Made by a program: the position numbers and the translations under genes. A stretch of DNA of 64,000 nucleotides from Patescibacteria group bacterium (GTDB lineage: Bacteria; Patescibacteriota; Microgenomatia; UBA10105; UBA927): the NCBI GenBank assembly GCA_035510735.1, contig DATKGN010000006.1:1429-65428 (forward strand). The letters run 5' to 3'. Positions 1 through 15,590 of the stretch are shown piece by piece; positions within the stretch are counted from its first letter, which is position 1; each line of letters opens with the position of its first letter. The notes beneath the pieces are model-generated. The model was given only the letters and a program-made list of their open reading frames with translations. It ran no database searches and was not told the DNA's origin.

Positions 1-79
1 ATGGAGTTACGGCTGAAATCTGGGAGGATACGGAATAAAACAGCCCCATACTTTCGCATGAGGCTGTTTATACTTGCTG

Positions 80-457
80 CTATAATTTAGCTTTTGGCAT
101 TACCCGACTGATTGGTTGCTCATCAAAATATCTATCGCGCTCAATACCTAGTCCAAACTTGCCGCGGTAACTTTCAAGCTCTGATAGAGCAAACGACCCC
201 CATTCATCGTTCCAGTCTCCAAAAATGGAAACATATCCGAAAAACTCTTTAGTTTCCGGATCGTATTCGGTTGCGTACCAGGTGCCAGCTCCTGCTGGAT
301 TGAAAAACTTAGCGATTACGACCGGATCGGCTACTTCTTCCTGTCTTCCGACTTTCTCGAATCTTTTTAATAGTCCTTTTGTTAATAGTTGCATTAATTG
401 TTCACCCCCTTTCTTTTGCTGCTTCCGGAAAATTAATGTATTTGGAAGCATGCCCAT
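80..457 (-). CDS. DUF2958-family protein (typical of plasmids/conjugative elements)
   Basis: Translation contains GTWYATEYDPET..FFGYVS..EWGSFALSELESYRG..GLGIERDRYF, matching DUF2958 consensus as I recall it. Confidence 0.65.
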   Translation of the reverse strand: MGMLPNTLIFRKQQKKGGEQLMQLLTKGLLKRFEKVGRQEEVADPVVIAKFFNPAGAGTWYATEYDPETKEFFGYVSIFGDWNDEWGSFALSELESYRGKFGLGIERDRYFDEQPISRVMPKAKL

Positions 458-708
458 GCTTCCAATACTTGGAATTCTTCATGGCGGGGTGAGTTGGGCA
501 AGGGCAAGCGAAGCGAAGTTTATTGGAGGCGAAGCCGGAAACCCTTGCCAAACGAGGGGCAAGACCCCTATTGTGTGTTAATCCAATGGTATTTAGATGA
601 CAGGTTTCTTCTTCTGATACCGACAGAGTGAAGAAGTTTTAGCCATAACGTACTATAATAGTTAACAGCGCTCGGTACCAAAATAAATTCCGAGATATCG
701 AAATAATC

Positions 709-2949
709 ATGAAACTTACAGACAACGAAAAACGAGATGTAATTAAATATTTAGAGGCAGGAAAGCCACTTCCTGAAAAATATCGTTTTCTTCTTTTCGA
801 TGACGATCGTGAGGTTGAACTCGTATGGAACGGCAAAACAGACGAAGTAACAAATGTAGTATTGCCTTTTCAAACAATAGAACAGATTGACGAACCAAGG
901 AGCGACGCTAAATTTGGCATGCAGGAGACACTTTTTGATACTTCAGGCAGACAGATAACAGGATGGACTAATAAACTTATATGGGGCGATAACAAACTTA
1001 TTCTTTCCTCATTAAAGAATGGGCCTCTTAGGAAAGAAATTGAAGCGCAGGGTGGGTTAAAACTTATCTATATTGATCCTCCGTTTGATGTTGGCGCGGA
1101 CTTTTCTATGGATATTGAAATTGGTGGCGAAGAATTCATTAAAAAACCATCAGTGATCGAAGAAATTGCTTACCGCGACACTTGGGGCAAAGGTGCAGAC
1201 AGCTTTATTTCAATGATTTATGAGCGTCTTCGACTAATGTATGATTTGCTAGCAGAGAATGGAAGTATTTATATTCATTGTGACTGGAGAGTAAATTCAT
1301 ATATGCGTTTAGTTTTAGATGAAATTTTTAATTATTTTATTGCTGAAATTGCTTGGCAAAAATTAAGATCAGTCAAATCTCAAAGCTTACATTTTTCAAA
1401 TATTAAAGACAGTATATTTATATATTCAAAATCAGATAGGTATGTGTTTAACCCTCAATTTACACCAAAGGACGAAAAATTATTAGAGACTCATTACCGT
1501 CATATTGAAGCGGAGACGGGGCGTCGTTATAACCTTGCTGATTTTACACAAAATGGGAGCGGTCAACCTAGAAAGTTTGGAGAGAGAATTATTTCACCGC
1601 CACCAAATAAGCATTGGATTTGGAGTCAAGAAAAAATTGATGAGGGTATTAAAAATGGAATGATTATGTTTTCAAAAACTGGTACACCGTATGTAAAAAG
1701 GTATTTTGATACAGGTGAGGGCACCAGAGTTGGAGATATTTGGGATGACATTTTTCCAGTTAATCAAGTCGCCGCAGAAAGACTAGATTATCCAACTCAA
1801 AAGCCCGAACTACTTCTGGAAAGAATTATTAAAGCATCTTCTAATGAAGGTGATCTTGTTGCAGATTTTTTCTGTGGATCTGGAACTACACTAGCAGTAG
1901 CAGAGCGATTAGGTAGGAAATGGATTGGTGCTGATTTGGGAAAGTTTGGAATTCATACTTCAAGGAAAAGATTAATTGGTGTTCAACGGGAGCTTAAAAA
2001 AGAAGGAAAAGATTTCCGGGCGTTTGAAATATTAAATGTCGGAAGATATGAAAGGGAGAACTTTTTAGCGGTTAATGATGATTTGCGCACAGAAGAAAGA
2101 GAAAAACAAGCTGAACGAAAAGAAAAAGAATTCGTCAAACTAATACTTTCTGCATACAAAGCAGAACCTGTTGAAGGCTTTATAAATATTTCAGGTAAAA
2201 AACGAGATCGTTTGGTTGCAGTTGGCCCGATAAGTACTCCCGTCTCCTCAAAACTTATTCGGGATATTGTGAGTGAATGTAAAGATAAAAAACTCACGAA
2301 AGTTGATGTACTTGGTTTTGATTATGAGATGGGGATGGACCTACAGGAATATAAAGATCAGGGAATTGATATTGTTTTCCGAATAATACCAAGAGAAGTG
2401 TTTGATAAAAAGGCGGTTGAAAAAGATCAAGTCAAGTTTTACGACGTAGCCTACATAGTAGCAAAACCAATAATAAAAGGGAAAGCGAATAGTAAAGAAT
2501 TATCGATTGAATTAACTGACTTTTCAGTATTTTACAATCAGGACGCAACAGAAGAAACAACAGAAGCACTTCGTCCTGGTGGTGAAAAAGTTATTGTTGA
2601 AAATGGACAGGTAGTAAAAATATCAAAAGATAAAGCCTCAGAAATCGTGTCAAAGGAAATTTTGACTAAAAAGTGGAGTGATTGGATTGATTATTGGGCA
2701 GTGGATTATAATTTCGCAAGTAGAAAAGAAATTGTTGCCGAAATTGATAAAGATGGTAACACTATTGAACGCTGGACTGGCGATTACATTTTTGATAATG
2801 AATGGCAGAGCTTTAGAACCAAGAAAAACAGGAACCTTGAGTTAGTTTCAGCGCCAAAAGAAGTTACCAAAGGCACTTATAAGGTGGCTGTAAAGGTTGT
2901 AGACATATTTGGCAATGACACAACAAGAGTTATGGAGGTGACTGTTTAA
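709..2949 (+). CDS. mod: Type III restriction-modification Mod subunit, N6-adenine DNA methyltransferase (beta class)
   Basis: Motif IV DPPF (IYIDPPFD) precedes motif I FxGxG (ADFFCGSGTT), the beta-class order typical of Type III Mod; res gene follows 1 nt downstream. Confidence 0.85.
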   Translation: MKLTDNEKRDVIKYLEAGKPLPEKYRFLLFDDDREVELVWNGKTDEVTNVVLPFQTIEQIDEPRSDAKFGMQETLFDTSGRQITGWTNKLIWGDNKLILSSLKNGPLRKEIEAQGGLKLIYIDPPFDVGADFSMDIEIGGEEFIKKPSVIEEIAYRDTWGKGADSFISMIYERLRLMYDLLAENGSIYIHCDWRVNSYMRLVLDEIFNYFIAEIAWQKLRSVKSQSLHFSNIKDSIFIYSKSDRYVFNPQFTPKDEKLLETHYRHIEAETGRRYNLADFTQNGSGQPRKFGERIISPPPNKHWIWSQEKIDEGIKNGMIMFSKTGTPYVKRYFDTGEGTRVGDIWDDIFPVNQVAAERLDYPTQKPELLLERIIKASSNEGDLVADFFCGSGTTLAVAERLGRKWIGADLGKFGIHTSRKRLIGVQRELKKEGKDFRAFEILNVGRYERENFLAVNDDLRTEEREKQAERKEKEFVKLILSAYKAEPVEGFINISGKKRDRLVAVGPISTPVSSKLIRDIVSECKDKKLTKVDVLGFDYEMGMDLQEYKDQGIDIVFRIIPREVFDKKAVEKDQVKFYDVAYIVAKPIIKGKANSKELSIELTDFSVFYNQDATEETTEALRPGGEKVIVENGQVVKISKDKASEIVSKEILTKKWSDWIDYWAVDYNFASRKEIVAEIDKDGNTIERWTGDYIFDNEWQSFRTKKNRNLELVSAPKEVTKGTYKVAVKVVDIFGNDTTRVMEVTV

Positions 2950-2950
2950 T

Positions 2951-5659
2951 ATGGCACTACACAAGGATTTTCCTCAAGACCCATATGTAATACTCGACCC
3001 GAGTATTAGATGGTTTCCGGCAGAGGAAGATTTGCGTGAAAAGGGAGGGCTAGAAAAATTACTTCCCCCATTGGTCGCTGATTTGCGTATTAAGGTAAAA
3101 GGCTGGAGAGATAAACATTATGAGGGAGCAAACGATACTTCTAGAGCTCTACTTAATTGGTGGTTTAAAGAAGAACATATTATTTACGACCAACATGGAA
3201 CCGCTTCGAAATTCCAATACTATTTTGCCCAACGGGAAGCGTTGGAAACAGTTATATGGCTTTATGAAGTTGCCAAAGTAAAAGATAAATATGATCTTAT
3301 TCGCTATAACTCCACAGGCGTGTTAAGTGCCGGAATGTTTACCGAAGACTGGTTGCGTTTTGTAATTAAAATGGCAACCGGCGCTGGGAAGACAAAAGTC
3401 ATGAGTTTACTTATCGCTTGGGCATATTTTCATAAAAAGTATGAACAGGACTCTCGCCTGGCAAAAAACTTTCTTTTAATTACACCCAACGTCATCGTGT
3501 TTGAAAGAATTAAAAATGATTTCGAGGGATTAAAAATCTTTTTTTCTGATCCGGTTTTACCTGAAAACGGATATCAAGGACAAAATTGGCAAGATGATTT
3601 CCAAGTGACATTACATCTGCAGGACGAGATAAAAACTATTTCTGATACAGGGAATATATTTTTGACCAACATCCACAGAGTATTCGAAGGAAATATCAAA
3701 GATGCTAGTTTGGATGATGAGGATACCTCTTCATATTTTTTGGGTCATAAACCGGTCACAAAAACAAACGATTCAACAGTCGATTTGGGAATGATTGTCC
3801 GTGATATTGATGAACTAATTGTTATCAATGATGAAGCCCACCATATTCATGATGAGAACATGGCTTGGTATAAATCGATATTAGATATCGACAACAGGCT
3901 AAAACAAAAAGGTTCGGGACTTGCTTTGCAACTGGATATGACAGCAACGCCAAAGAAGAATGATGGCTCGATATTTGTGCAAACGATAACGGACTATCCC
4001 CTTGTTGAGGCCATTCATCAAAGAATTGTCAAAAATCCTGTTATTCCTGACGCCGCCAGTCAAGGGAAACTAAAAGAGAATCAAAGCGCACTGTTTAGTG
4101 AAAAATATCGTGATTACATTAATCTCGGAATCGAGGAATGGCGTAAAACCTATGAGACCCTGAAACCTATGGGTAAGAAGTCAATTCTTTTTATCATGAC
4201 TGATGATACTAAAAACTGTGATGAGGTTGCTGAGTACATAAAGACAAGTTTTTTTGACTTGAAAGATGCAGTTCTGACCATTCATACCAATAAAAGCGGT
4301 GAGATATCTGAAAGTGTTACCGGTAAAAATATCGATGAATTAAATTTACTCAGAAAACAGGCCAATGAAATCGATAGTTGGGAAAGTCCTTTCAAAGTGA
4401 TTGTTTCCGTCATGATGCTGAAAGAAGGCTGGGATGTAAAGAATGTCACTACAATTGTCGGTCTTCGACCTTACGCTGCCGATTCCAAAATTCTTCCGGA
4501 ACAAACACTAGGACGTGGTCTCAGAAGGATGTTTTTTGGACAAAGCGATGTCGAAGAATATGTCAGCGTAATTGGTACACCAATGTTCATGGAGTTTGTG
4601 GAGTCGATTAATAGAGAGGGTGTTATTTTGGAAAGAAGAGAAATGGGAGAAGGATCTAAGGCGATTGCCCCAACAGTCATTGAAGTTGATAAAGAAAATC
4701 CTAATAAAAACATTGAAAAATTGGATATCGAGATTCCGGTTATGACCCCAAGAATACAAAGAGAATATAAAAATCTCGCGAGTTTAGATGTTTCCTTGTT
4801 TGGTAACCCTAAAGTTAAAGTTAAAACTTTTACTGAGGAAGAAAAACGGGAAATTGTATTTAAAGACGTAGTTGATGAAAAAACACACCACACGACTGTT
4901 CTGACTGGTGACGTGGAACCTGATTACAGAAGTGTCGTTGGTTTCTTTGCTCAAGCAATAATGCGTGAATTACGTCTGTTTGGTTGTTACGATATTTTAT
5001 TTGGAAATGTTAAAGATTTTATTCAGAATTATTTGTTTGAGACTCCGGTTGATTTGGAAGATCTAAATGTTCTGAGAAATTTATCAGAAGTTGAGTACAT
5101 AAAGCTCATTAAAGATTCTTTTAAAAAGGCAATAAACAACCTAACTGTTCAAGATAGTGGCGATACAGAAATCAAGAACTACATTAAAGTTAGTGAATCA
5201 CGACCGTTTGTTGTTAATGATAAGGCATACTTATTACCCAAGAAATCCGTTTTCAATAAAATTGTTGGTGATAGTAATTTTGAACTAACTTTTGCTGATT
5301 TCATTGAGAATTGTGACGATGTAATTTCCTTCTCAAAAAACTTTCAAAATAAGGAAGCTAGTGCTTTGAGAATCGAATATAAAAACTCGGAAGGTTTTAT
5401 TGCCACTTATTATCCGGACTTTTTTGTGAAAAAGGACGATAAGACTGTTTATATAGTCGAAACAAAAGGTCGCGAGGAAGAGGACGATAAATTGAAATTC
5501 GAAAGATTGCAAAAGTGGTGTGGGGATGTAAACAACCGGCAAACCAGAGTGGAATATAAAGCTTTATACATTAAGCAGGAAGAATGGGAAAAATACAAAC
5601 CAAAAAGTTTTGATGAGACAGTGAGGTTATTTAGTAGATCAATTGATAATAATGCATGA
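2951..5659 (+). CDS. res: Type III restriction enzyme Res subunit (SF2 helicase + C-terminal PD-(D/E)xK endonuclease)
   Basis: Walker A MATGAGKTKV, DEAH box VINDEAHH, helicase motif VI-like QTLGRGLRR, C-terminal YPDFFVK..IVETKG nuclease motif; adjacent to mod. Confidence 0.85.
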   Translation: MALHKDFPQDPYVILDPSIRWFPAEEDLREKGGLEKLLPPLVADLRIKVKGWRDKHYEGANDTSRALLNWWFKEEHIIYDQHGTASKFQYYFAQREALETVIWLYEVAKVKDKYDLIRYNSTGVLSAGMFTEDWLRFVIKMATGAGKTKVMSLLIAWAYFHKKYEQDSRLAKNFLLITPNVIVFERIKNDFEGLKIFFSDPVLPENGYQGQNWQDDFQVTLHLQDEIKTISDTGNIFLTNIHRVFEGNIKDASLDDEDTSSYFLGHKPVTKTNDSTVDLGMIVRDIDELIVINDEAHHIHDENMAWYKSILDIDNRLKQKGSGLALQLDMTATPKKNDGSIFVQTITDYPLVEAIHQRIVKNPVIPDAASQGKLKENQSALFSEKYRDYINLGIEEWRKTYETLKPMGKKSILFIMTDDTKNCDEVAEYIKTSFFDLKDAVLTIHTNKSGEISESVTGKNIDELNLLRKQANEIDSWESPFKVIVSVMMLKEGWDVKNVTTIVGLRPYAADSKILPEQTLGRGLRRMFFGQSDVEEYVSVIGTPMFMEFVESINREGVILERREMGEGSKAIAPTVIEVDKENPNKNIEKLDIEIPVMTPRIQREYKNLASLDVSLFGNPKVKVKTFTEEEKREIVFKDVVDEKTHHTTVLTGDVEPDYRSVVGFFAQAIMRELRLFGCYDILFGNVKDFIQNYLFETPVDLEDLNVLRNLSEVEYIKLIKDSFKKAINNLTVQDSGDTEIKNYIKVSESRPFVVNDKAYLLPKKSVFNKIVGDSNFELTFADFIENCDDVISFSKNFQNKEASALRIEYKNSEGFIATYYPDFFVKKDDKTVYIVETKGREEEDDKLKFERLQKWCGDVNNRQTRVEYKALYIKQEEWEKYKPKSFDETVRLFSRSIDNNA

Positions 5660-5729
5660 AATTTACTCGGAAAGCTTAAGAGATCCTTTGAGAGGTTTTT
5701 AAATATTTCAAGTGAATGACTGAATTAAA

Positions 5730-6740
5730 ATGATTAAAAAAATAGACAACAAAGAACTGAGAGAAATAATTCAAAGTGGCCACCTAAACGTGCTTGTTGG
5801 TTCTGGGTGTTCTTTAAATTACCTATCAACTTTAAAGGGTATAGAAGATAAGATGAACGTCGAAGCAACCAAAGAATCCGCTCAAAAAGATTATTACAAG
5901 TTGATAAAAAAATCTAAAGCAATCTTATATGAATCACTTGAAACGAATGCTGCTGAAAAGATAAAATTAAGCGACACAAAGGAAAATTATGATTCATTTC
6001 TTACGTTCTGGGCAGACACTGTATCCAAAAGATCTCTTCATATAGTCAATAAACAGGTAAACTTTTTTACAACTAATTTTGACATGTTTATGGAAGATTC
6101 TTGCGAAAGATTAGGGGTTCCTTACAATGATGGGTTCACTGGGCAAATCAATCCGATTTTCAGCGTTGCAAATTTTAATAAAATACAGAAATATAAGAGT
6201 TTACAGTTTGATAACACTTCTGACATACCTCTATTTAATCTAATAAAGCTACATGGATCTGTCTCATGGGTTGCAAAAGGTGAGAAAATTACCTACTCAG
6301 ACAGTTCTCATATCCCAGATAATTTGGCTACCAAATCAGGATCTGATTTTAGTAAACAATACAGAAAAATTGCAGTGATTAATCCTAATGCAGAAAAACA
6401 TTTTGAAACAGTTCTTGATACAAACTATGCTTCAATGTTAAGAAAGTTTACTCTAGAACTTGAGAAGGAAAACAGTGTTTTGGTCGTTGTTGGTTTTTCT
6501 TTAGAGGATAAACATATCAAAGATCTTCTCTATGGTGTCATGAAATCAAATCCTACTTTGATAGTAGTCTATTTTTCTTACTCTCAGTATGACGAGACGC
6601 TCGACAAACTAGAAGAAAAAAAGAATTCAAATTTATATATAATTTCACCTGAAAATAATTTTTCTTTTGAAAAAAGTGTTAAATACCTCTCTGAAGTTTT
6701 TGCACCCCAAAGAGACGATATACAACATGATGAAGAATAG
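5730..6740 (+). CDS. SIR2-like (SIR2_2 family) defence protein, partner of HerA
   Basis: NVLVGSGCS, TTNFD (cf. conserved TTNYD) and KLHGSVSW motifs of the SIR2_2 family; 3' end overlaps the HerA-like gene. Confidence 0.75.
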   Translation: MIKKIDNKELREIIQSGHLNVLVGSGCSLNYLSTLKGIEDKMNVEATKESAQKDYYKLIKKSKAILYESLETNAAEKIKLSDTKENYDSFLTFWADTVSKRSLHIVNKQVNFFTTNFDMFMEDSCERLGVPYNDGFTGQINPIFSVANFNKIQKYKSLQFDNTSDIPLFNLIKLHGSVSWVAKGEKITYSDSSHIPDNLATKSGSDFSKQYRKIAVINPNAEKHFETVLDTNYASMLRKFTLELEKENSVLVVVGFSLEDKHIKDLLYGVMKSNPTLIVVYFSYSQYDETLDKLEEKKNSNLYIISPENNFSFEKSVKYLSEVFAPQRDDIQHDEE

Positions 6741-8637
6741 CTTCAATCTACAAGATACCCTAGTCAGCAACTCAATATTTGTTATTGGGAGTGTCTTCAG
6801 TGTTAAGGGAAAAGATATTGTAATCAAGGTTAACAAAGATAAAAACCTTCCTCACCTGTTTTTTAAGGGTAAAACAATTAAGAATGTGTCTGTTGGGCTA
6901 TCTAATTATGTAAAAATAACCAAGGGCTTTACTGAGATTATATGCAAGGTTGAAGGTGAATTTTTAGAGGAAGATAAATTTCAAGCAAGTAAAAAATACA
7001 TAAACGAAAAACAAAAAATAGAACGATTCCTCAATGTATCGGTTTTTGGTTTTTATGATAGTGATAATCGATTCCAACATGGCATTAAGGAAATGCCATT
7101 AATCGGTAGTGAGTGTAAATTGCTCACAAGAGATGAATTTGAAATTTTACATCAATTATCTAATGGAACTGAGTTATCAATAAATCTAGGATCACTAATC
7201 GATGAGGAAACCCAAAGCATTAACCTCTCTATAAAGAAATTATTTGCTGGACATATTGGCATATTTGGTAATACCGGATCTGGAAAATCGAATACCTTAG
7301 CAAGGATGTATACAGAGTTATTTAAGTTGCCAAATTTAAATGATAACTTTAATAAAAAATCTAAGTTTATTTTTATAGATTTTAATGGAGAATATTCTAA
7401 AGATAGTGATGATCAAATTTTAACAGCAAATAAAGTTGTCTATAAATTACGAACAAAGGATAATAATGGCTCCAAATACCCAATTTCCAAAGCAGAAATT
7501 GAAAAAATGGAACTTTTATCCATATTGCTTAATGCTACTGAAAAAACACAACAACCATTCTTACATAGAGCTATAGACAGAGACTGGTATGACAACGACA
7601 ACGATGACCATCACAAGGAAGTTCAAAGTATAAACCAAAAGTTAAAAGACATCCTTTTGATGAAAAATAAAGAGTTTAATGTTCCTTTTTTGAAGAAATA
7701 CGTAAAAGACTTTGAACAACTAGGTTTTAAAGTCGTTAATGATAACAAAAATATTGACGATTTGAAATATCATGGTAATGATAATTGTACTTTCTATACT
7801 GGTCAAGGAACTACTGCTGTTTACGCAGATACAAACGAAGGTCATTTTATAGGGGTTGATGGATATTTTAACGTATCTATCTCTACAACTGAAGGTTTGA
7901 GTGACTTGCAAAAAATACAATTCAAAATAATAGACCAATATTACTTTGAGATTTTAAATGGATATGCAAATGATGAACACATCAATCCCCTTATGGGTAG
8001 ATTGAAAAAGCGATTTGACATGTTATCTAAGGTAGTTGAAATTAAGGACTCTTCTCAAACCAACGGAGAAAATGTTGATGTAACACCTTGTAATATAGAG
8101 GTAATTGATCTTAAAAATGTCAATTTTGAACTTAAAAAAGTTGTTCCATTACTTATTTGTAAAACAAACTACGATGAACAAAAAAATAGAAGGGATACCG
8201 ATAAAGAGAATTCTCTTCATATCATAATTGATGAGGCACATAGCATTTTGTCGGAAAACTCAAACAGAGAGGCTGAATCCTGGAAGGATTATAGACTCGA
8301 AACATTCGAGGAAATTATAAAAGAAGGTAGAAAGTTTGGAGTTTTCCTTACAATTGCAAGCCAACGACCGTCTGACATATCGCCAACTATTATTTCGCAG
8401 TTACATAATTATTTTATTCACAAATTAATGAATGAAAATGATTTGAAATCGATTAATAGAGCTGTTAGTTATTTAGATAAACTTTCCTTCGATTCAATAT
8501 CAAATCTTTCTACGGGATGCTGTTTCATCGCAGGACAAATGACACAATTTCCATTGTCAGTAAAAGTAAAACTGCTTGATAAAAATATTCGACCACAAAG
8601 TGAAACAATCGACTTAGATAAATTATGGAAACAATAA
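6727..8637 (+). CDS. HerA/FtsK-like ATPase of SIR2-HerA system
   Basis: Walker A GNTGSGKSNT, Walker B IIIDEAHS, C-terminal ASQRPSD region typical of HerA (DUF87). ORF track starts at TTG 6667; ATG at 6727 gives a 14-nt overlap with the SIR2 gene. Confidence 0.75.
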   Translation: MMKNSFNLQDTLVSNSIFVIGSVFSVKGKDIVIKVNKDKNLPHLFFKGKTIKNVSVGLSNYVKITKGFTEIICKVEGEFLEEDKFQASKKYINEKQKIERFLNVSVFGFYDSDNRFQHGIKEMPLIGSECKLLTRDEFEILHQLSNGTELSINLGSLIDEETQSINLSIKKLFAGHIGIFGNTGSGKSNTLARMYTELFKLPNLNDNFNKKSKFIFIDFNGEYSKDSDDQILTANKVVYKLRTKDNNGSKYPISKAEIEKMELLSILLNATEKTQQPFLHRAIDRDWYDNDNDDHHKEVQSINQKLKDILLMKNKEFNVPFLKKYVKDFEQLGFKVVNDNKNIDDLKYHGNDNCTFYTGQGTTAVYADTNEGHFIGVDGYFNVSISTTEGLSDLQKIQFKIIDQYYFEILNGYANDEHINPLMGRLKKRFDMLSKVVEIKDSSQTNGENVDVTPCNIEVIDLKNVNFELKKVVPLLICKTNYDEQKNRRDTDKENSLHIIIDEAHSILSENSNREAESWKDYRLETFEEIIKEGRKFGVFLTIASQRPSDISPTIISQLHNYFIHKLMNENDLKSINRAVSYLDKLSFDSISNLSTGCCFIAGQMTQFPLSVKVKLLDKNIRPQSETIDLDKLWKQ

Positions 8638-8673
8638 TTTAAATAAAGAGTCCATCTTAAAAGATTTCTTTGA

Positions 8674-9453
8674 GTGTATAAAAGTAATTTAAATAATATG
8701 TCCAAATACTACAATCCCAACCGAACACGTAATTTATATAACTCCGATTCTTTGGAGACTTTCCGTATCAGCCGGAGTAAAATTGACCTTTTTATCAATT
8801 GTCCTCGTTGTTTTTATCTTGATCGTAGGTTAGGAGTCGCTCAACCACCTGGATATCCATTTTCTCTCAATACTGCTGTCGATAAGCTTCTCAAGAAGGA
8901 ATTTGACAGGCATAGAGCCAATGGGACAGCCCATCCCCTAATGAAAGTTTATGGAATTGATGCCGTGCCTTTGTCACACGAAAAAATAAATGAATGGCGG
9001 GATTCACTTAGAGCAGGGATAACTTTTAAGATTGATAGCGAAAATGTAGTCATAACCGGCGGGGTTGATGATGTCTGGGTCAAACCCGATGGTGAATTTA
9101 TCATTGTTGATTACAAAGCTACTTCCAAAGAAGAAGAAGTGACGTTAGATGCTGACTGGCAAATCGGCTATAAACGCCAAATGGAGATATACCAGTGGTT
9201 ATTCCGAAAGAATGGCTTTCGCGTCTCCACAACTGGTTATTTTGTGTATTGTAATGGCAATACTGACAAAGAAGCTTTTGACGGTAAACTGGAATTTGAT
9301 ATTAAGATTATTCCATATGTTGGTGATTATTCCTGGGTCGAGAAGACCGTCCATGAGGCTATTGAATGTTTAAAAAGTGATACTCTTCCGGAATCCGGAG
9401 ACGATTGTGATTACTGTAAATATCGAAAAGCCGTTAGCCGTTTTGAAAAATAG
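8674..9453 (+). CDS. Cas4-like PD-(D/E)xK nuclease with Cys cluster (DUF83-like), stand-alone
   Basis: N-terminal CPRCFYL, VDDVW..IVDYKAT nuclease core, YKRQMEIYQWL and C-terminal CDYCKY, the Cas4/AddB-like Fe-S nuclease pattern. GTG start at 8674; alternative ATG at 8698. No cas1/cas2 or CRISPR array nearby. Confidence 0.6.
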   Translation: MYKSNLNNMSKYYNPNRTRNLYNSDSLETFRISRSKIDLFINCPRCFYLDRRLGVAQPPGYPFSLNTAVDKLLKKEFDRHRANGTAHPLMKVYGIDAVPLSHEKINEWRDSLRAGITFKIDSENVVITGGVDDVWVKPDGEFIIVDYKATSKEEEVTLDADWQIGYKRQMEIYQWLFRKNGFRVSTTGYFVYCNGNTDKEAFDGKLEFDIKIIPYVGDYSWVEKTVHEAIECLKSDTLPESGDDCDYCKYRKAVSRFEK

Positions 9454-9456
9454 ATC

Positions 9457-9816
9457 ATGGACAAAGAACATCATGATAGTTTTGGAGATTTCTTAGGAGC
9501 ACTTTTCCAATTATTTTTACTAGGTGCGATTATATATTTTCTGTTTTTAGTCATTTGGGGAATTTTCAAGTTAGTTTTGTGGTTACTCAAACGTATTTGG
9601 CAATTAATAACGTGGGTATGGTTTCAGATTAGAAAACACGCCGTCTTACAATACAGAATAAATAGGCTAAACTTGGCCACTCATGCTTTTCTTTTGAGAC
9701 ACGGCAAGATTAATCGAATTATGTTATGTATCCGTACCTATTTCTTAATCTTTTGGACAAGTCGACCATCCGAGTTATTTAATAAACTGAGCAAATCAAT
9801 AGATACGAACGTTTAA
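9457..9816 (+). CDS. small Trp-rich membrane protein, hypothetical
   Basis: ATG 3 nt after preceding stop; strongly hydrophobic N-terminal segment (LGALFQLFLLGAIIYFLFLVIWGIFKLVLWLL). Confidence 0.45.
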   Translation: MDKEHHDSFGDFLGALFQLFLLGAIIYFLFLVIWGIFKLVLWLLKRIWQLITWVWFQIRKHAVLQYRINRLNLATHAFLLRHGKINRIMLCIRTYFLIFWTSRPSELFNKLSKSIDTNV

Positions 9817-9844
9817 AAAATATTGACCGTATTAATTAATATTT

Positions 9845-10357
9845 ATGGCAATAATTAGTAATAAATACTCACTGAAAAAAGCTTGTTTAAGAAATTCAAA
9901 AAACTTACTTAAGGAATCAACAAGATTACTTAACCGAAAAAAGTATGCGTGGGCTACCTTTCTAGCTATAACCTCCTTCGAAGAAAGTCAAAAGTTAGGT
10001 CTTTTACACATGCTTGAGGCTAATTACTTATCTGAATCTAAATTTAATAAATTTTGGCGAAGTCATGAGTATAAAATAAGGTCAAAAGATGCACGTATAA
10101 GATTTAATTTCGATACCAGCGAAAAAATAAAACCTACGTTAGTTTTAGGATCAAAACAAGAAGCTCATGAGGTTATGAATATGCGAGAAAGTTGTTTATA
10201 CGTCGATTTTGCCGAAAAGTCGATATCTGAGCCTCTCAAAATCAACATAGCGATTGCTATACAATATATCAATGAAGCAACCAGAGAGCTAGAGTCCGCT
10301 AACTTTTTAGAGTTGTTACAAAAAAGGTTACATAGAGTACTTAAAGTTAAAAAATAA
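9845..10357 (+). CDS. AbiV-like abortive-infection family protein (tentative)
   Basis: N-terminal helix pattern C..N...LL.E...LL......A.FLA..S.EE..K, as I recall for the AbiV family; size 170 aa fits. Confidence 0.4.
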   Translation: MAIISNKYSLKKACLRNSKNLLKESTRLLNRKKYAWATFLAITSFEESQKLGLLHMLEANYLSESKFNKFWRSHEYKIRSKDARIRFNFDTSEKIKPTLVLGSKQEAHEVMNMRESCLYVDFAEKSISEPLKINIAIAIQYINEATRELESANFLELLQKRLHRVLKVKK

Positions 10358-10361
10358 AACT

Positions 10362-11138
10362 ATGAATGACGATCAATTAAGTTTAACAAAGAAGAAATTT
10401 CCGATACTGTTTTCCTTTTCTCAAGATTACACAGGCAGTGATTACAATGACATCAGGCAATTATTTAGAGATAAGCCAGTCTTAATTTTTGGTGAAGACT
10501 ACTGGTCAAAATATGAGCAATCCCTTCAATCTTTAACTGAAAAAGACAAACAATATTTGTTCGGTAAACTTAAAACCTTAACTAAAAGAATTGATGAAAA
10601 GGCGGGTTGGCCTCATTTCGAAGAAAGACTAAATGAAGCATTGGCTTATAGATATCTTCAAAAAAATGGTTACAAAAAAATACGGTTTATTGACGAAAAC
10701 ACTAAGAATGGACGAAAACCAGATTTAGAAATCCTAAATGCGAATGACTCACTTAATGGACTAGTGGAGGTAAAAACCATTAGATTCTCCCTTGACGAAT
10801 ATGCAGCCGTCAAAAAGGAATTAGAAACAGGTAAAGGAAGATTTTTGCCAATGCAAGTGAACAAAAATCTTTATAAAAAAATTACCGATGATCTAGATAA
10901 AGCAGTAAAACAACTGACTTACCAGGGTTCCGCATCAATATCTTTACGGAGAATTTATCTTTTTCTTAATTTAGACGCCGGAGTCTTAATGGATCTCATA
11001 TTTACCCCAGATAGCGATTTACAAAACTTTATTTGTCAAACTAAAAAAACTTTGGATAAGAATAATCATATTGACTTAAAAACGTATTTACTTGGTGGTA
11101 TTCCCGGAGAGCCAAAAGAGCTCAAATGCAAAGGCTAA
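10362..11138 (+). CDS. hypothetical protein with PD-(D/E)xK-like motif
   Basis: GRKPDLEIL...GLVEVKTI resembles a PD..(D/E)xK restriction-endonuclease-fold core; starts 4 nt after the AbiV-like gene. Confidence 0.4.
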   Translation: MNDDQLSLTKKKFPILFSFSQDYTGSDYNDIRQLFRDKPVLIFGEDYWSKYEQSLQSLTEKDKQYLFGKLKTLTKRIDEKAGWPHFEERLNEALAYRYLQKNGYKKIRFIDENTKNGRKPDLEILNANDSLNGLVEVKTIRFSLDEYAAVKKELETGKGRFLPMQVNKNLYKKITDDLDKAVKQLTYQGSASISLRRIYLFLNLDAGVLMDLIFTPDSDLQNFICQTKKTLDKNNHIDLKTYLLGGIPGEPKELKCKG

Positions 11139-11165
11139 TCCTGCGTTGATGTATACTATTCCTGT

Positions 11166-11390
11166 ATGCTTAACCCACAGGATGAAAAGACTAGGCAGGA
11201 CATTGCGTCGAAATTGAAAAAGTACCGTCTCAAAAAAGGCTTGTTTCAAACCGATGTAGCTAAGAAAGCTGGTTTGAACAGCAATTTTTACTCGAAAGTT
11301 GAACGCGGTGATGCTATTCCATCTGTGATTACACTTAAAAAGATTTTGGGGGCGCTTGGGGTTAAATCTTCAGAAATTCTCTCGTTTTAA
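11166..11390 (+). CDS. XRE-family helix-turn-helix transcriptional regulator
   Basis: Classic HTH_3 pattern LKKYRLKKGLFQTDVAKKAGLNSNFYSKVERGDAIPSVITLKKI. Confidence 0.75.
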   Translation: MLNPQDEKTRQDIASKLKKYRLKKGLFQTDVAKKAGLNSNFYSKVERGDAIPSVITLKKILGALGVKSSEILSF

Positions 11391-11608
11391 TTCTTCTTCA
11401 TTTCTATCTCGTGCAGAAGTTCTTTGTATTCCTTTTCAAGTTCTTCCGGTTCAAAATGAGCCATGGTGTGATAATGGGCTTTGAGATGCTCCAGTAAAGC
11501 CATCGCCATTTCCGGTGTAGCATGTTCGGGGTCAGTGGCTTTCAAAAATTTGAGAACACCGTCGATATCTTTTTCGTTTAACTGATACCCACCTGTCTTT
11601 GTCGTCAT
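11387..11608 (-). CDS. small hypothetical protein downstream of serine recombinase
   Basis: 73-aa ORF, helical/acidic composition, co-oriented 8 nt downstream of the recombinase. Confidence 0.35.
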   Translation of the reverse strand: MTTKTGGYQLNEKDIDGVLKFLKATDPEHATPEMAMALLEHLKAHYHTMAHFEPEELEKEYKELLHEIEMKKN

Positions 11609-11616
11609 GCGAGTTA

Positions 11617-13086
11617 TTATACCTCAAATAAGGGATTAATTTTTGGATAGCTCAATCCGGGATAATTCCAAACGAAACCGCGTGGAAATATGGTACTTAA
11701 AATTGCTTTTTGATTATCAACGGATATATGCATATATGTGTTGTATATATTCTCTAGATTGGAATTCATATATGTAATACAGGTTGAAAGCGTATATTCC
11801 TGTAGAAAAGATTTTTTAATCGATAACTTTATTCGGTCAATATTATCGCTCAATAGCGCGTTTTGCTCGCAAAATACCTCGTCTGTATAGAGACCGGATA
11901 AATGTTTATGGACGAGGTTCGTTCGCATAGCGATAAGTTTGCCTACGAGTTGTTCTCTTTTTGCCTTATACATCCTGATTTTCGAGTACCGTCTTTCATA
12001 TTCCTCCTGTAGGAGTTTATAAATAATCACACGACCAAGCTTGGACAGCTTCATTCTCGTTAATAGTGACTTTAATAACTTATGGAGCTTTTCGGCCGGT
12101 ACATACGGCGAATGACACAATTGCGATTTGTAACACCAATAATATGGATACTTCTTCAAGTGACCACTACACCATGAGCCGGTAAATCCGAGTCCGCATT
12201 TTCCGCACTTTACTATTCGACGTAATGGAAAATCAACATTCGGTGGATTTCGAAGCACCAAGGATGGTTTATTATGTCGACCGTCGAGTATTGCCTGAAC
12301 TTTCTCAAACAGCTCTTTTGAAACCATAGGCTCATGTTGCCCGTGGACCTCTTCGTTGTATCGCTTGGAAACAAGAAAACCGGCATAAAATTTTGAGCGA
12401 AATATCCGGTGTACCGTTTGACGCCGGATAAGATACTTTTGGTTGTTAATAGTGGTTCGTAATCCCCAAGAATTCATGATGTTCGTCATCTCACGAAGTG
12501 ACTTTGTACCCGTGGCCATCAATTCCCAGGCTTTTTTCACCTGATCCCAGACTTTGGTATCTTTAAAGACATATCCTTCATGGCGGATATATCCTAATTG
12601 TGCCTTTCCGGAACAAAGCAATCCTGATTGAAACCGTGCGTGCATACCGTTTCTTGCACGCTCACTTTTCATCTCATTATCAAGTTGTGCAATTCCTGCA
12701 TAAAAATTACCAATGAATTTGCCCATAGGAGTATCATCAACCGGCTCTGTTGCTGAAATAAGTTTAATTCCCATTCTATTCAGTTTCTCCTTTATGATGA
12801 GGTAGTCTGTCATCTGCCGAGACAAACGATCGGTTTTGTAAAATACAACAGCCTGAACATCTTTTGTATGCCGTCGGCAATATTCGAGAAGTTTGATCAG
12901 TTCAATTCTACCTGTGATAGTTTTTGCGGATTTTCCTTCTTCACGATATACCTGCGTAACGACATAACCTAACCGATCAGTTTCGCGCCTGCACACTTCT
13001 TCCTGTGTGCCCATAGAATAGTTATCGACCTGTTCCTCTGTTGATACCCGAAGATAAAGAATTGCTTGTTTTTGTGTTAGTTTCAT
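11617..13086 (-). CDS. large serine recombinase (resolvase/integrase family)
   Basis: N-terminal resolvase domain with catalytic Ser (YLRVSTEEQ), DRLSR motif, recombinase domain and C-terminal zinc ribbon (CGKCG...WCSGH...YWCYKSQLC). Confidence 0.85.
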   Translation of the reverse strand: MKLTQKQAILYLRVSTEEQVDNYSMGTQEEVCRRETDRLGYVVTQVYREEGKSAKTITGRIELIKLLEYCRRHTKDVQAVVFYKTDRLSRQMTDYLIIKEKLNRMGIKLISATEPVDDTPMGKFIGNFYAGIAQLDNEMKSERARNGMHARFQSGLLCSGKAQLGYIRHEGYVFKDTKVWDQVKKAWELMATGTKSLREMTNIMNSWGLRTTINNQKYLIRRQTVHRIFRSKFYAGFLVSKRYNEEVHGQHEPMVSKELFEKVQAILDGRHNKPSLVLRNPPNVDFPLRRIVKCGKCGLGFTGSWCSGHLKKYPYYWCYKSQLCHSPYVPAEKLHKLLKSLLTRMKLSKLGRVIIYKLLQEEYERRYSKIRMYKAKREQLVGKLIAMRTNLVHKHLSGLYTDEVFCEQNALLSDNIDRIKLSIKKSFLQEYTLSTCITYMNSNLENIYNTYMHISVDNQKAILSTIFPRGFVWNYPGLSYPKINPLFEV

Positions 13087-13265
13087 ACGTCTATATTAGT
13101 AAGTAGTTCATCAAGTGTTTTTCCTTCAAATATTTGCTGTTCTACAGTATTGAGCCAAACATCAACCAAATATTGTAGTTCGGAAATAGTTGTTTGAATT
13201 TCGTCGTCATTCATCTGAATGCCGTCTTTCTGTAACAGTTCGCGGATTTCGTCTAATTTATCCAT
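13083..13265 (-). CDS. small acidic hypothetical protein (possible recombination directionality/accessory factor)
   Basis: 60-aa ORF overlapping the recombinase start by 4 nt, 3 nt downstream of the PLD gene. Confidence 0.35.
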   Translation of the reverse strand: MDKLDEIRELLQKDGIQMNDDEIQTTISELQYLVDVWLNTVEQQIFEGKTLDELLTNIDV

Positions 13266-13268
13266 AGT

Positions 13269-13766
13269 TCAATAAATAAATCTACTTAATTTTAGATACT
13301 CAAACATTTCTTGTGACATACTGCTACTTTGGATTCTGCGCATTATTTCACGGCTGCACGTTTGGGAGAGAATGTTGAGGCTACCTTCCCAGAGTACTTT
13401 CCGATCAATGATAGCCAGTTTCCGGTGGGAGTATTCGTTGCTGATTAATACTTGGATTCCCATTGTTTCAAATTGCCTGATCTCACATTCAGCCTGTCGT
13501 TTGAGATTAGGATCGTGGTCGTCCGGATCACGGGTAATAACGTAAACTTTGACTTTCCTTCGAACCAGCTCCGCAAAGACCGCTGTCAGATGAAATACGC
13601 GTTGGGAGGTAATGAATGGGCTTTCGATGATAACTTCCGTTCTGGAGCGTTTAAGATCGGCTATAAACCGTTTGTAGAACGTGGTCTCGTCGAACAGTTG
13701 AGATTGGACAAGGTCGGGTGACAGATGGAACAGTTTTTTAACACCAGACAGGACAAGGTTATTCAT
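13269..13766 (-). CDS. phospholipase D-family (single HKD) nuclease, Nuc-like
   Basis: Exact HxKx4Dx6GSxN motif (HRKLAIIDRKVLWEGSLN); 165 aa like dimeric Nuc/BfiI-type endonucleases; RBS AAGGAGG 4 nt upstream of ATG. Confidence 0.7.
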   Translation of the reverse strand: MNNLVLSGVKKLFHLSPDLVQSQLFDETTFYKRFIADLKRSRTEVIIESPFITSQRVFHLTAVFAELVRRKVKVYVITRDPDDHDPNLKRQAECEIRQFETMGIQVLISNEYSHRKLAIIDRKVLWEGSLNILSQTCSREIMRRIQSSSMSQEMFEYLKLSRFIY

Positions 13767-13908
13767 GATCCTCCTTTTTCCCGTTTAAATCGGGTATAAT
13801 AACAATAACTTTGCCGTCACAGTAGGTAAATCCGAGTTTCTGAAGTTTTTCGTACGTAGCCAGGAGACTTGGGAGTATAGTGTTCCACCTACGGGACAGC
13901 TCGCTCAC
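13759..13908 (-). CDS. candidate small ORF (49 aa, GTG start) overlapping the PLD start
   Basis: Protein-like translation VSELSRRWNTILPSLLATYEKLQKLGFTYCDGKVIVIIPDLNGKKEDHE; no SD; below ORF-track length cutoff. Confidence 0.2.
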   Translation of the reverse strand: MSELSRRWNTILPSLLATYEKLQKLGFTYCDGKVIVIIPDLNGKKEDHE

Positions 13909-13947
13909 AAAGAAATTGAGGTTAATTATTCAGTATTGAATTTAGGT

Positions 13948-14142
13948 TTAATAGGGTTGGGTAATACTCGTTGGTTCTATAACCATAAATCTACTTAGAG
14001 GATTCGTAAATACTTCCGGAATATTATCTGGCACACACCACCATCCGCAGGTAAGAGTATTTCCTTTCGGACCAATTTCACCCAAACTCTTCGGTAAAAC
14101 GGTGCCGATCTCATTTAGAAAATCCATATCTTCCTGAGTCAA
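13948..14142 (-). CDS. hypothetical, probably the 3' part of a frameshifted PRTase-like gene
   Basis: TTG-start 64-aa ORF; its frame stays open and protein-like upstream into the 216-aa ORF region. Confidence 0.3.
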   Translation of the reverse strand: MTQEDMDFLNEIGTVLPKSLGEIGPKGNTLTCGWWCVPDNIPEVFTNPLSRFMVIEPTSITQPY

Positions 14143-14789
14143 TACATCCTCAAGTAACGGAATTTTTTGAGAATCTGCAACCCATACGTCAACATAATTC
14201 TCTTTAGCCTTTTCTCTGCCCAGGCACTTGAATACAATACGTATGCGTGAACTTTAGGATATCGTCCTTTACCAGAAGCCTCCCAGACAAGATCGAGTAT
14301 CTGATTCTTGACATGGGCAGTAGAAATTAACCAGTCTTCAATAATGTATAAATTGGTTTTTCCTCTGATCATTTTCGGTGTCACGCTAAGCCCTTCGCCT
14401 GTTGATATTTCGCTTGCTGCTTTTTTCAACCCCAGACCGCATAATTGTTCGTAAATCCAATGGCTACTCCTGCTAACAGGAAAATAGATGTAATGAAATG
14501 GCCCCTCTTGAGCTTTTTCGGTTAATGCAACCGCCATTTTTTTTAGATTCGTATCAAATGATTCTTTACTGATAAAATGGAATCCGTCTGCTAATCTATT
14601 AAGAAAAAGCTCCGGTGGGTTTGCTTCTAATATCGCCGTGGCACCCTGAACACTCCTGTCATAGGTTGTTGGAATATGTTTGTCTAGCAGAATCTGCGCA
14701 AATTGTTGAGGAGTTAAAGGCTCATTTGGAATAGGCAGTCGATCAGCTAGTCTACCTGAGTTCTCTACTCTGTAGGTTTGTTCTGCCAT
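14139..14789 (-). CDS. phosphoribosyltransferase (PRTase type I)-like domain protein, possibly disrupted
   Basis: NLYIIEDWLISTAHV resembles the PRPP-binding motif (cf. pyrE in this window, NVLVIEDLVSTGKS) but with Gly/Lys replaced. Confidence 0.35.
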   Translation of the reverse strand: MAEQTYRVENSGRLADRLPIPNEPLTPQQFAQILLDKHIPTTYDRSVQGATAILEANPPELFLNRLADGFHFISKESFDTNLKKMAVALTEKAQEGPFHYIYFPVSRSSHWIYEQLCGLGLKKAASEISTGEGLSVTPKMIRGKTNLYIIEDWLISTAHVKNQILDLVWEASGKGRYPKVHAYVLYSSAWAEKRLKRIMLTYGLQILKKFRYLRMY

Positions 14790-14907
14790 AAATTATTTAT
14801 AATTCGTGAAAATTTTGTTGCTCATAGAGAGTATAGATGATTTTAGCACCCAGGATCAACACCTATGAACGCGTACTGATGAAACGAAAAGATAAAACTC
14901 CAAAAAA

Positions 14908-15408
14908 TTAAAATCTCTCAAGAAAGCCGAAATGATCGTATTTATTAAGTAGACTATTAACACCTCTTTCGCCCTCGCTGAGACCGTCAATCTTTTCTAA
15001 AGGTGGTAACTCGAGAGTTGTTTTATGGGGTCGTAATCCCGATTCAATAACTACGTTTTCGGCAGCTAATATATGAAAACTTGTGATCTGCTTACTCTCT
15101 TTTAGTATACCTTGATTCATAGACCTTTCGAGCGCATGGATGAGACGCGAATAATATTCCATAAGCTGGATTGAATTTTGATCTCCACTGCTTGCCAATT
15201 CATCGACAACTCCTACCCCTCCACTCTCATGGATAAGAAGGGAAACGACGGAAAGTTCCTCAAAACGAGGATGACGAAGAATTTCAAGTATTCGGGGATA
15301 CGGATCTGACATTCCATCTCTTTTAACGTTTCTAGAATAGCGTTTTATGGTGCTAACTGTTGTAGTGCCATCAAAGTTTGGAAACGCAAGGTCAATTTGC
15401 TTACGCAT
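14908..15408 (-). CDS. hypothetical protein
   Basis: 166-aa ORF, no recognised motif. Confidence 0.35.
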   Translation of the reverse strand: MRKQIDLAFPNFDGTTTVSTIKRYSRNVKRDGMSDPYPRILEILRHPRFEELSVVSLLIHESGGVGVVDELASSGDQNSIQLMEYYSRLIHALERSMNQGILKESKQITSFHILAAENVVIESGLRPHKTTLELPPLEKIDGLSEGERGVNSLLNKYDHFGFLERF

Positions 15409-15485
15409 TTAAATATTATAGGATTATACAGATTATAAAGCAAATTCTGCCTTCGCTCCGAATATCTCGATTTGAAATAATTTAG

Positions 15486-15530
15486 GCGGGATTGGTTCAG
15501 GGTTCGAATCTCCCGCGTGCGGGATCTCGC
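15486..15530 (+). other. tRNA-like fragment: T-arm consensus GGTTCGAATC inside a GCGGGAT...TCCCGC mini-hairpin, followed by a second GCGGGAT
   Basis: Canonical T-loop sequence GGTTCGAATC is present, but D and anticodon arms are missing and the 7-nt acceptor partner is absent upstream; lies at the junction between AT-rich island and core genes. Confidence 0.3.
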
Positions 15531-15590
15531 TTCGCTCAATACGACGTGTTTCGCTTGCTCAACCGTGCGGGCTCACAAGAGAAGGTGTGA

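Follow-up and report, generated by a model that had tools for sequence, protein, structure and literature searches.

The DNA analyzed here (hereafter the window) is a 64,000-nt stretch of contig DATKGN010000006.1, from a Patescibacteria group bacterium, and this report concerns the AT-rich island at its left end. The first 14 to 15.5 kb or so of the window is foreign, horizontally acquired DNA, in which four parts can be distinguished (Table 1). From left to right, these are the DUF2958-encoding end of a conserved transfer backbone (1-569), a variable slot filled with defense genes (570-11151), a conserved module built around an intact large serine recombinase (LSR) (11152-13908), and a segment with orphan open reading frames (ORFs) (13909-15590), beyond which the host genes begin. 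Window 1-13908 probably represents the distal portion of an integrative mobile region of composite build, carried by a bacterium of the candidate phyla radiation (CPR). Its features of interest are the 569/570 junction and the module at 11152-13908, not the sequence at 15.5 kb, where the initial annotation of this DNA had placed an attachment (att) site derived from the 3' end of a tRNA gene.

Table 1. Features of the island and of its right-hand border, in window coordinates
Feature	Position	Strand	Supporting match or property
DUF2958 gene	80-394 (104 aa from conserved ATG; longest ORF to 457)	-	PF11171 3.5e-18
Conserved non-coding region upstream of DUF2958	395-569 (~175 nt)	-	Three hairpins; DNA homology to about 40 loci
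Type III restriction-modification (R-M) mod	709-2949	+	N6_N4_Mtase 6.5e-43; PADLOC MTase_III 1.9e-108
Type III R-M res	2951-5659	+	ResIII 1.4e-17; PADLOC REase_III 6.2e-19
SIR2 of SIR2-HerA pair	5730-6740	+	SIR2_2 5.3e-13; PADLOC SIR2 4.3e-49
HerA ORF of SIR2-HerA pair	6667-8637	+	DUF87/HerA 1.2e-17; PADLOC HerA 2.7e-172
PD-(D/E)XK Cas4-like nuclease	8674-9453	+	PDDEXK_1 4.1e-15; PADLOC Cas4 models 6e-11
119-aa ORF, partner of Cas4-like nuclease	9457-9816	+
AbiV-like HEPN protein	9845-10357	+	HEPN_AbiV PF18728 1.8e-20, above cut-off; PADLOC AbiV 5.7e-10
258-aa ORF, AbiV partner	10362-11138	+
HTH_3 regulator	11166-11390	+
73-aa ORF	11387-11608	-
LSR, 489 aa	11617-13086	-	Resolvase, Recombinase, Zn_ribbon_recom; PHROG integrase 2.5e-74
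60-aa ORF	13083-13265	-
PLD-family nuclease	13269-13766	-
49-aa ORF	13759-13908	-
64-aa ORF	within 13909-15408	-
Orphan ORF, 216 aa	14139-14789	-	GC3 0.37
Orphan ORF, 166 aa	14908-15408	-	GC3 0.32
T-arm-like motif, intergenic between 166-aa ORF and PMT_2 gene	15486-15530	+
PMT_2/GT39 glycosyltransferase, first host-like gene	15591-17252	-	Pfam PMT_2 3e-11; marks compositional right edge

Base composition separates the island from the host DNA to its right. The G+C content is 0.361 over 1-13908 (0.345 in 709-11138 and 0.405 in 11139-13908), 0.400 over 13909-15590, and 0.459 in the host part of the window (15591-64000). At third codon positions (GC3), island ORFs range from 0.26 to 0.47, while host genes average 0.48 +/- 0.06 and the PMT_2 gene reaches 0.56. 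Composition places the break at about 15.4-15.6 kb, where the initial annotation, which described an AT-rich accessory region against housekeeping genes on its right, had put it. Every function named in that annotation was recovered in our hidden Markov model (HMM) scans, and its proposal of an integrative mobile element is supported, in that the region was horizontally acquired and is part of such an element or lies against one. As for the host, the PMT_2 protein is 100% identical to an NCBI protein from "Patescibacteria group bacterium," and its homologues are all from CPR. Since this protein, the window LSR, and a relaxase (P0243) all match NCBI Patescibacteria proteins on one 133,987-bp contig, the host is a CPR bacterium.

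At the left end, scanning 185,579 species genomes with the DUF2958 protein yielded 60 loci (52-88% identity), nearly all of them in CPR metagenome-assembled genomes (MAGs). Some backbone-bearing MAGs are labeled "uncultured Gammaproteobacteria," "Pseudomonadales," "archaeon," or "Eubacteriales" (L003, L005, L006, L009-L011, L018, L023, L026, and others), which reflects either mislabeled or contaminated bins or an element with a wider host range. Clustering of the ORFs of the 60 loci revealed a recurrent gene order, DUF2958 / c4 / c6 / Replic_Relax / coupling protein (T4CP) / HTH / small ORF / LSR, in which c4 and c6 are two small ORFs and the HTH gene, between T4CP and the small ORF, is often present. 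The relaxase is a ~260-aa PF13814 (Replic_Relax) protein, a family that corresponds to the MobC relaxase superfamily (PMC5357655). The coupling protein, of ~870-970 aa, is VirD4-like, with TrwB/TraG/T4SS-DNA_transf domains. Together, these genes form a compact unit of 6.4-7.4 kb that is found in about 40 CPR loci, and many genomes carry this backbone as a discrete unit with defined ends and without the recombinase module. In four loci (L028, L029, L031, and L032), mutual homology runs exactly from the CCCC end of the backbone to a tRNA, over about 7.4 kb. Because homology ends sharply at both the terminus and the tRNA, the backbone is a discrete element, of the kind known as integrative and mobilizable elements (IMEs).

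The window holds only the DUF2958 end of this unit. However, L001, a metagenome contig that is 100% identical to the window over 1-1200, runs on into a relaxase gene next to DUF2958, and P0243 (PF13814), encoded on the source contig of the window, is 89% identical to that relaxase. The earlier suggestion that the element extends past the left edge of the window is thus supported by the presence of P0243 on the same contig. Genes for a type IV secretion system (T4SS), encoding VirB4-like, PrgI-like, and pilin-domain proteins and an M23 peptidase, are found near the backbone in some loci only, and outside its ends. We considered these as a part of the element and rejected the idea, since they occur in some loci only and at a variable distance beyond the sharp end of the backbone. 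Nor does the island show the structural or packaging genes of a prophage: its matches in PHROGs are limited to the integrase and a repressor-type HTH protein, and scans of viral contigs with the recombinase and the PLD nuclease gave nothing useful. In two Gottesmanbacteria chromosomes (L053:10422-16406 and L059:10417-16681), the backbone is decayed, with fragmented relaxase, coupling protein, and recombinase ORFs. Therefore, the family also leaves fossils.

The backbone terminus is exceptionally well defined. About 40 loci share one end point of backbone homology, ...GGGGCAAGACCCC(T), at window position 569 (569-572 in the alignments). The terminus motif is AGGGGYCTTRCCCCT, and the flanks past the end point are unrelated, each locus having a different one. 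The start codon of DUF2958 and its ribosome-binding site, AAAGGAGGTGA, are conserved in 30 aligned loci. In the non-coding region between this start codon and the terminus, hairpin H3 shows compensatory changes at four pairs across 30 loci (RNAalifold), and a UCACCCC segment can pair with the Shine-Dalgarno sequence of DUF2958, GGAGGUGA. The 395-569 region is a candidate for an element terminus or att arm, and/or an origin of transfer (oriT), and/or a translational leader.

Directly past the terminus begins the slot, which in the window contains four putative defense units. The mod and res genes adjoin, with 1 nt between them, and make up a type III R-M system. The SIR2 and HerA genes are adjacent, with overlapping ORFs, and form a predicted defense pair. 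These are followed by the Cas4-like nuclease with its partner ORF, the nuclease scoring 2.3e-10 against TIGR00372, which is under the cut-off of that model, and by AbiV, recognized by the presence of a HEPN_AbiV domain protein, with a partner ORF of its own. The DUF2958/mod junction recurs nearly unchanged in two other metagenomes, with 100% identity over 1200 nt in L001 and over 650 nt in L002. In five related contigs, the slot between backbone terminus and recombinase module is occupied by defense sets that differ entirely from this one, including OLD/AAA_15, a type III-like R-M system, and a diversity-generating retroelement in L080; a protein kinase, an NgoFVII R-M system, and DUF2779 in L082; a caspase with TIR, a LexA-like protein, and a type I R-M system in L084; and a type IIG R-M system, Dam, and EVE-GmrSD in L089.

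Reverse transcriptase genes adjoin the DUF2958 terminus in several CPR loci, including L004, L006, and L013 (ORF clusters c16/c30). In L080 (19853-21250) and in L085-L087, an RVT_1 gene is paired with bAvd, as in diversity-generating retroelements, and in L085-L087 a fn3 surface protein of ~1050 aa is encoded near this pair. In L080, part of the mod/DUF2958 intergenic region is duplicated on both sides of the retroelement cassette (L080:18542-18689 compared with window 517-711), and the duplication includes a second copy of the backbone terminus motif. This suggests that the L080 cassette was inserted at the backbone terminus.

The slot is closed by the recombinase module, a 2.75-kb block present in six independent loci (the window, L063, L080/81, L082/83, L084, and L089) at 66-77% DNA identity. 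In window coordinates, this homology extends from 13904-13915 to 11152-11196, and the ORFs of the module are full length in all six loci, with 60-92% amino acid identity. The window LSR is itself intact, its catalytic motif YLRVSTEEQ, DRLSR, and zinc ribbon all being kept. Hence, the island has an integrase of its own, as an IME does, and relatives of the backbone carry a further LSR. In every contig that is long enough (L080, L082, and L089), the module lies 7-10 kb from the backbone terminus. Two candidate recombinase remnants were rejected. The 49-aa ORF displays no similarity that would make it the remnant of a recombinase C terminus, and a presumed pseudogene in 13087-15700 reduces to a sole match with 30% identity, interrupted by stop codons, whose E value of 0.006 against 4 kb is noise.

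The relatives also reveal where the backbone inserts. When LSR genes other than those of the window type have enough downstream sequence, about 26 of 32 are followed by a tRNA gene on the opposite strand, at a spacing that is fixed by clade (105-107 or 238-261 nt after residue 470). These tRNAs are diverse (Leu, Glu, Gln, Ser, Arg, His, and Tyr). One element occurs at two of them, tRNA-Leu(CAA) in L085 and tRNA-Arg(UCU) in L086, with identity from GGCACCA on, and four related elements begin directly after ...GCAC of four distinct tRNA-Leu genes. Because identity, or the element, starts at these positions, the crossover lies in the last few bases of the tRNA (...GCAC/CCA), and therefore no copy of the T arm is expected at the distal end. 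The tRNA junction of the family is found beside the LSR of the backbone, at the end opposite DUF2958, which here is off the window. For recombinases of the window clade (60-79% identical to the window LSR), a tRNA was never seen downstream. The initial annotation had proposed an integrative element whose att site derives from a tRNA 3' end, and half of this stands, since the family does use tRNA 3' ends, while 15486-15530 is not supported as such a site, as discussed below.

Three observations on individual loci belong here. L085 and L086 (4640-4960) come from near-identical CPR assemblies (JGI, 872 kb; ENA, 846 kb) that have the same distal flank and different upstream genes, a difference that is due either to recombinase-mediated rearrangement or re-integration, or to an assembly join across repeated elements. 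In L053, the first 17 nt of the tRNA-Leu(UAA) by the recombinase (16369-16455) is repeated exactly 154 nt onward, on the host side (16609-16625), for which 3'-end insertion gives no explanation; apart from this 5' copy, a search of the related loci found no displaced tRNA fragments. Finally, in L019 (6699-8838), the genes after a backbone-type recombinase are a PLD homologue (46% identity to the window protein) and then T4SS genes, in place of a tRNA, a layout halfway between the common one and that of the window.

At the right end of the island, the conserved mobile DNA reaches only to 13908, which leaves 1.6 kb to the att site that had been proposed, and beyond the module the neighbors are unrelated between loci. 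In L080, the 5' end of a tRNA-Glu is only 3 nt away; L082 and L084 have terminator-like hairpins, L063 has a recombinase pseudogene, and L089 has a GIY-YIG gene with acetyltransferases. In the window, the orphan ORFs have no match in Pfam, PHROGs, PADLOC, NCBIfam, or PDB, nor any tblastn match in the related loci, and the structure predicted for the 216-aa orphan is unusable (pLDDT 43.7). The DNA at 13909-15408 is probably foreign.

Together, these findings are best accommodated by a composite organization. The backbone would consist of DUF2958, a PF13814/MobC-type relaxase, and a VirD4/TrwB-type coupling protein, plus its own LSR as in the relatives, and it ends at 569. Insertion by this LSR would place the unit at the very 3' end of a tRNA gene, the remainder of the backbone lying to the left of the window. 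The variable slot, with its type III R-M, SIR2-HerA, Cas4-like, and AbiV units, sits directly against the backbone end and is closed by the conserved module around the second LSR. Defense genes would protect both host and element from phage and foreign DNA, and the serine recombinases would integrate and excise the composite. During transfer, the relaxase may nick within the structured 395-569 region, with the DNA leaving through a T4SS supplied in trans by the host, and what the 489-aa recombinase moves may be the composite as a whole or just the 570-13908 block. The DNA at 13909-15590 is additional AT-rich orphan DNA. Directly observed are the gene identities, the composition, the conserved blocks with their exact ends, the turnover of the cargo, and, in the relatives, the tRNA adjacency and the crossover position, while this copy is presumably mobile and presumably has the rest of the backbone on its left.

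Several points weigh against this composite organization. HMM scans of window 1-15590 detected no T4SS genes (VirB4 etc.), so the island does not classify as an integrative and conjugative element (ICE). No att sites could be assigned to the window-type recombinase, and the cargo-side sequence at 569/570 varies between loci. The coupling protein, the backbone LSR, and the left-hand tRNA of this copy are predicted from its relatives only. Since the 49-aa ORF begins with its start codon at 13908, the homology edge there may mark a gene boundary and not the end of the element, and since the orphans beyond it are also AT-rich, the end of the island is only bracketed (13908-15590). With the left end off the window and the right end so bracketed, no attL/attR pair was delimited, and a search for an empty site found none among the available genomes, the nearest PMT_2 homologues being 45-49% identical and non-syntenic.

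What alternatives could explain the locus? The initial annotation implied a single element running from an intact tRNA to the left of the window up to 15486-15530, where a duplicated tRNA 3' end would be the distal att site. The letters that it described, a T-arm-like sequence within GCGGGA/TCCCGC hairpin arms, are indeed present: GCGGGA (15486-15491) can pair with TCCCGC (15511-15516), a second GCGGGAT follows at 15519-15525, and GGTTCGAATC, at 15501-15510, is unique in the window. Moreover, all 16 nt of 15492-15507 (TTGGTTCAGGGTTCGA) agree with a Gottesmanbacteria tRNA-Lys(UUU), from its variable loop through the 5' T stem into the T loop, a likeness that chance produces with p~0.009 (at least 16 nt matching any of 69 distinct CPR tRNAs in 43 of 5000 anchored shuffles, in which the T-loop core was fixed and the flanks were shuffled). 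Across about 130 kb of related loci, every other occurrence of the T-loop motif falls within a genuine tRNA. The compositional break at the same place and the targeting of tRNAs by the backbone family also favor this idea. However, ARAGORN calls no tRNA in the 64-kb window, and Infernal, run with all Rfam models, finds neither a tRNA nor a partial one at E<=10 in a 601-nt, a 17.5-kb, or a 64-nt stretch, the last starting at 15497 so that a 5'-truncated tRNA could match. The likeness lies 5' of the T loop, yet a displaced att copy should hold the 3' end of the tRNA; the T stem fails to pair (5' CAGGG against 3' CTCCC), and nothing like an acceptor follows the loop. The fold of the junction is no more stable than that of shuffled sequences (z = -0.59), and the hairpin was also rejected as an intrinsic terminator, as none was called and the fold is unremarkable. 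In the relatives, the crossover in the last tRNA bases leaves at most about 7 nt to be duplicated, the loci contain no tRNA-fragment repeats, and no T-loop motif marks their boundaries. In addition, conserved element DNA ends at 13908. An att site at 15486-15530 is thus not supported, and an element of this shape is very improbable. The resemblance stops 3' of the T loop, so that the piece at 15.5 kb is neither a tRNA nor the 3' end of one, and may at best be what is left of a decayed tRNA.

Two other explanations concern the movement of the island. In one, the composite would be a tandem: 570-13908 (or 570-14443) would be an independent defense island that docks on the backbone terminus by means of its own 489-aa LSR and hitchhikes on the relaxase and coupling protein of the backbone. 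Many genomes without the module have the backbone by itself, as a discrete unit of 6.4-7.4 kb with defined ends; no fewer than four independent loci (the window, L080, L082, and L089) have the module and its cargo directly at the terminus; and in streptococcal IMEs serine integrases commonly target conserved ICE genes (PMC5357655). An imperfect direct repeat points the same way, 17 of the 20 nt at 570-589, which begins at the first base past the backbone end, recurring at 14444-14463 (a frequency of 3e-4, as 4 of 13,290 other island 20-mers match as well in the same 1.7-kb stretch). Although significant in the window, this repeat was set aside as a cargo-flanking feature, since it is absent from L080, L082, and L089, the three other loci holding both ends. 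Its second copy also falls within the 216-aa orphan ORF. Moreover, the first cargo-side bases vary, so that no shared att arm is visible, and the LSR gene occupies the distal edge of the block, its 3' end facing the interior, which departs from the layout of the backbone. We regard such a tandem as possible but rather unlikely. In the other explanation, the locus would be a static chromosomal defense hotspot, immobile by now, with its recombinase, DUF2958, and PLD genes reduced to decayed remnants. The decayed Gottesmanbacteria backbones, the lack of T4SS genes in the window, and the lack of defined att sites are what such a hotspot would show, but it is hard to reconcile with full-length, well-conserved module ORFs in six loci, catalytic motifs kept in the LSR, near-identical DUF2958/mod junctions in two other metagenome samples, and complete cargo turnover between close relatives. 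We thus give it little credence, and retain the composite region as the probable explanation.

Bacteria of the CPR, or Patescibacteria, have tiny genomes and are mostly uncultured, and DNA exchange among them is poorly known. Since a unit of relaxase, coupling protein, and LSR lies at tRNA genes in dozens of CPR genomes, conjugative mobilization in this group becomes testable. The backbone serine integrases appear to form a clade that recognizes tRNA 3' ends. More speculatively, CPR bacteria may harbor widespread undescribed compact elements (LSR, MobC relaxase, and VirD4) at the CCA end of many tRNA genes, mobilized by "orphan" chromosomal T4SSs, with recombinase-bearing defense islands, the window copy among them, as a second class that docks on their terminus and hitchhikes; we put this forward tentatively, as a conjecture that could well fail. 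If this were true, the CPR T4SS would gain a conjugative role, and a serine integrase clade with tRNA-end specificity would be described. Furthermore, because the defense slot changes completely between close relatives, it is a useful place to seek new antiphage systems in CPR.

Among described systems, the nearest counterpart of the backbone is streptococcal IME_Class_8, a compact arrangement of a VirD4 coupling protein, a PF13814/MobC relaxase, and a serine integrase (Coluzzi et al. 2017, PMC5357655). The CPR backbone has the same three-protein set and likewise an outward-facing serine integrase at one end. Unlike IME_Class_8, the CPR backbone includes DUF2958, has a structured non-coding terminus, and integrates at tRNA 3' ends, and copies of the window type add a second recombinase module and a defense slot. 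Streptococcal IMEs with serine integrases insert in rumA, in ICE genes, or at intergenic sites (PMC5357655), and, among streptococcal ICEs and IMEs more broadly, rumA, mutT, hsdM, or ICE genes serve as targets of serine integrases, while in the same surveys it is tyrosine integrases that act on tRNA genes (PMC4701971, PMC5357655). Tandem accretion at one site, which is common in the tRNA-targeting islands and ICEs with tyrosine integrases (Islander/TIGER type; actinomycete AICEs), is a point of likeness. However, the CPR enzyme is an LSR, its crossover lies in the last few bases with no long repeat and no displaced T-arm copy, and close CPR relatives use many different tRNAs. In the streptococcal ICEs that target rumA, the serine integrase gene itself contains the att site (Ambroset et al. 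2016, PMC4701971). Similarly, the CPR recombinase ORF runs into its target, so that its C terminus changes on integration, but while the target of the rumA ICEs is a protein-coding gene, the CPR target is a tRNA end, through which the backbone LSR ORF reads antisense.

Within Patescibacteria, a survey of T4SSs (Microb Genom 2025, PMC12102498) reported 58 MOBC relaxases, and 39 relaxase genes, of all classes, near t4cp. It found relaxases to be rare in this group, suggested that the T4SSs have been co-opted for functions other than conjugation, and makes no mention of recombinases, tRNA insertion, or defense cargo (PMC12102498). As in the Patescibacteria T4SS clusters, VirB4, PrgI-like, pilin-domain, and M23 peptidase genes are seen near the backbone in some loci, outside the discrete unit. 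A study of horizontal gene transfer in Patescibacteria (PMC12455944) described genomic islands with R-M systems, with no element-level analysis. The kind of element found here, an IME with a serine integrase, a MobC relaxase, and VirD4, is thus already known, while its tRNA-end targeting and its second recombinase module look undescribed. To our knowledge, there is no earlier description of a serine integrase clade that recognizes tRNA 3' ends. As for the slot, the hotspots of SXT/R391 ICEs and of P2/P4 prophages are fixed places between conserved backbone blocks in which antiphage systems vary. In contrast to these hotspots, the slot described here belongs to a CPR host and lies between the terminus of an element and a recombinase/PLD module.

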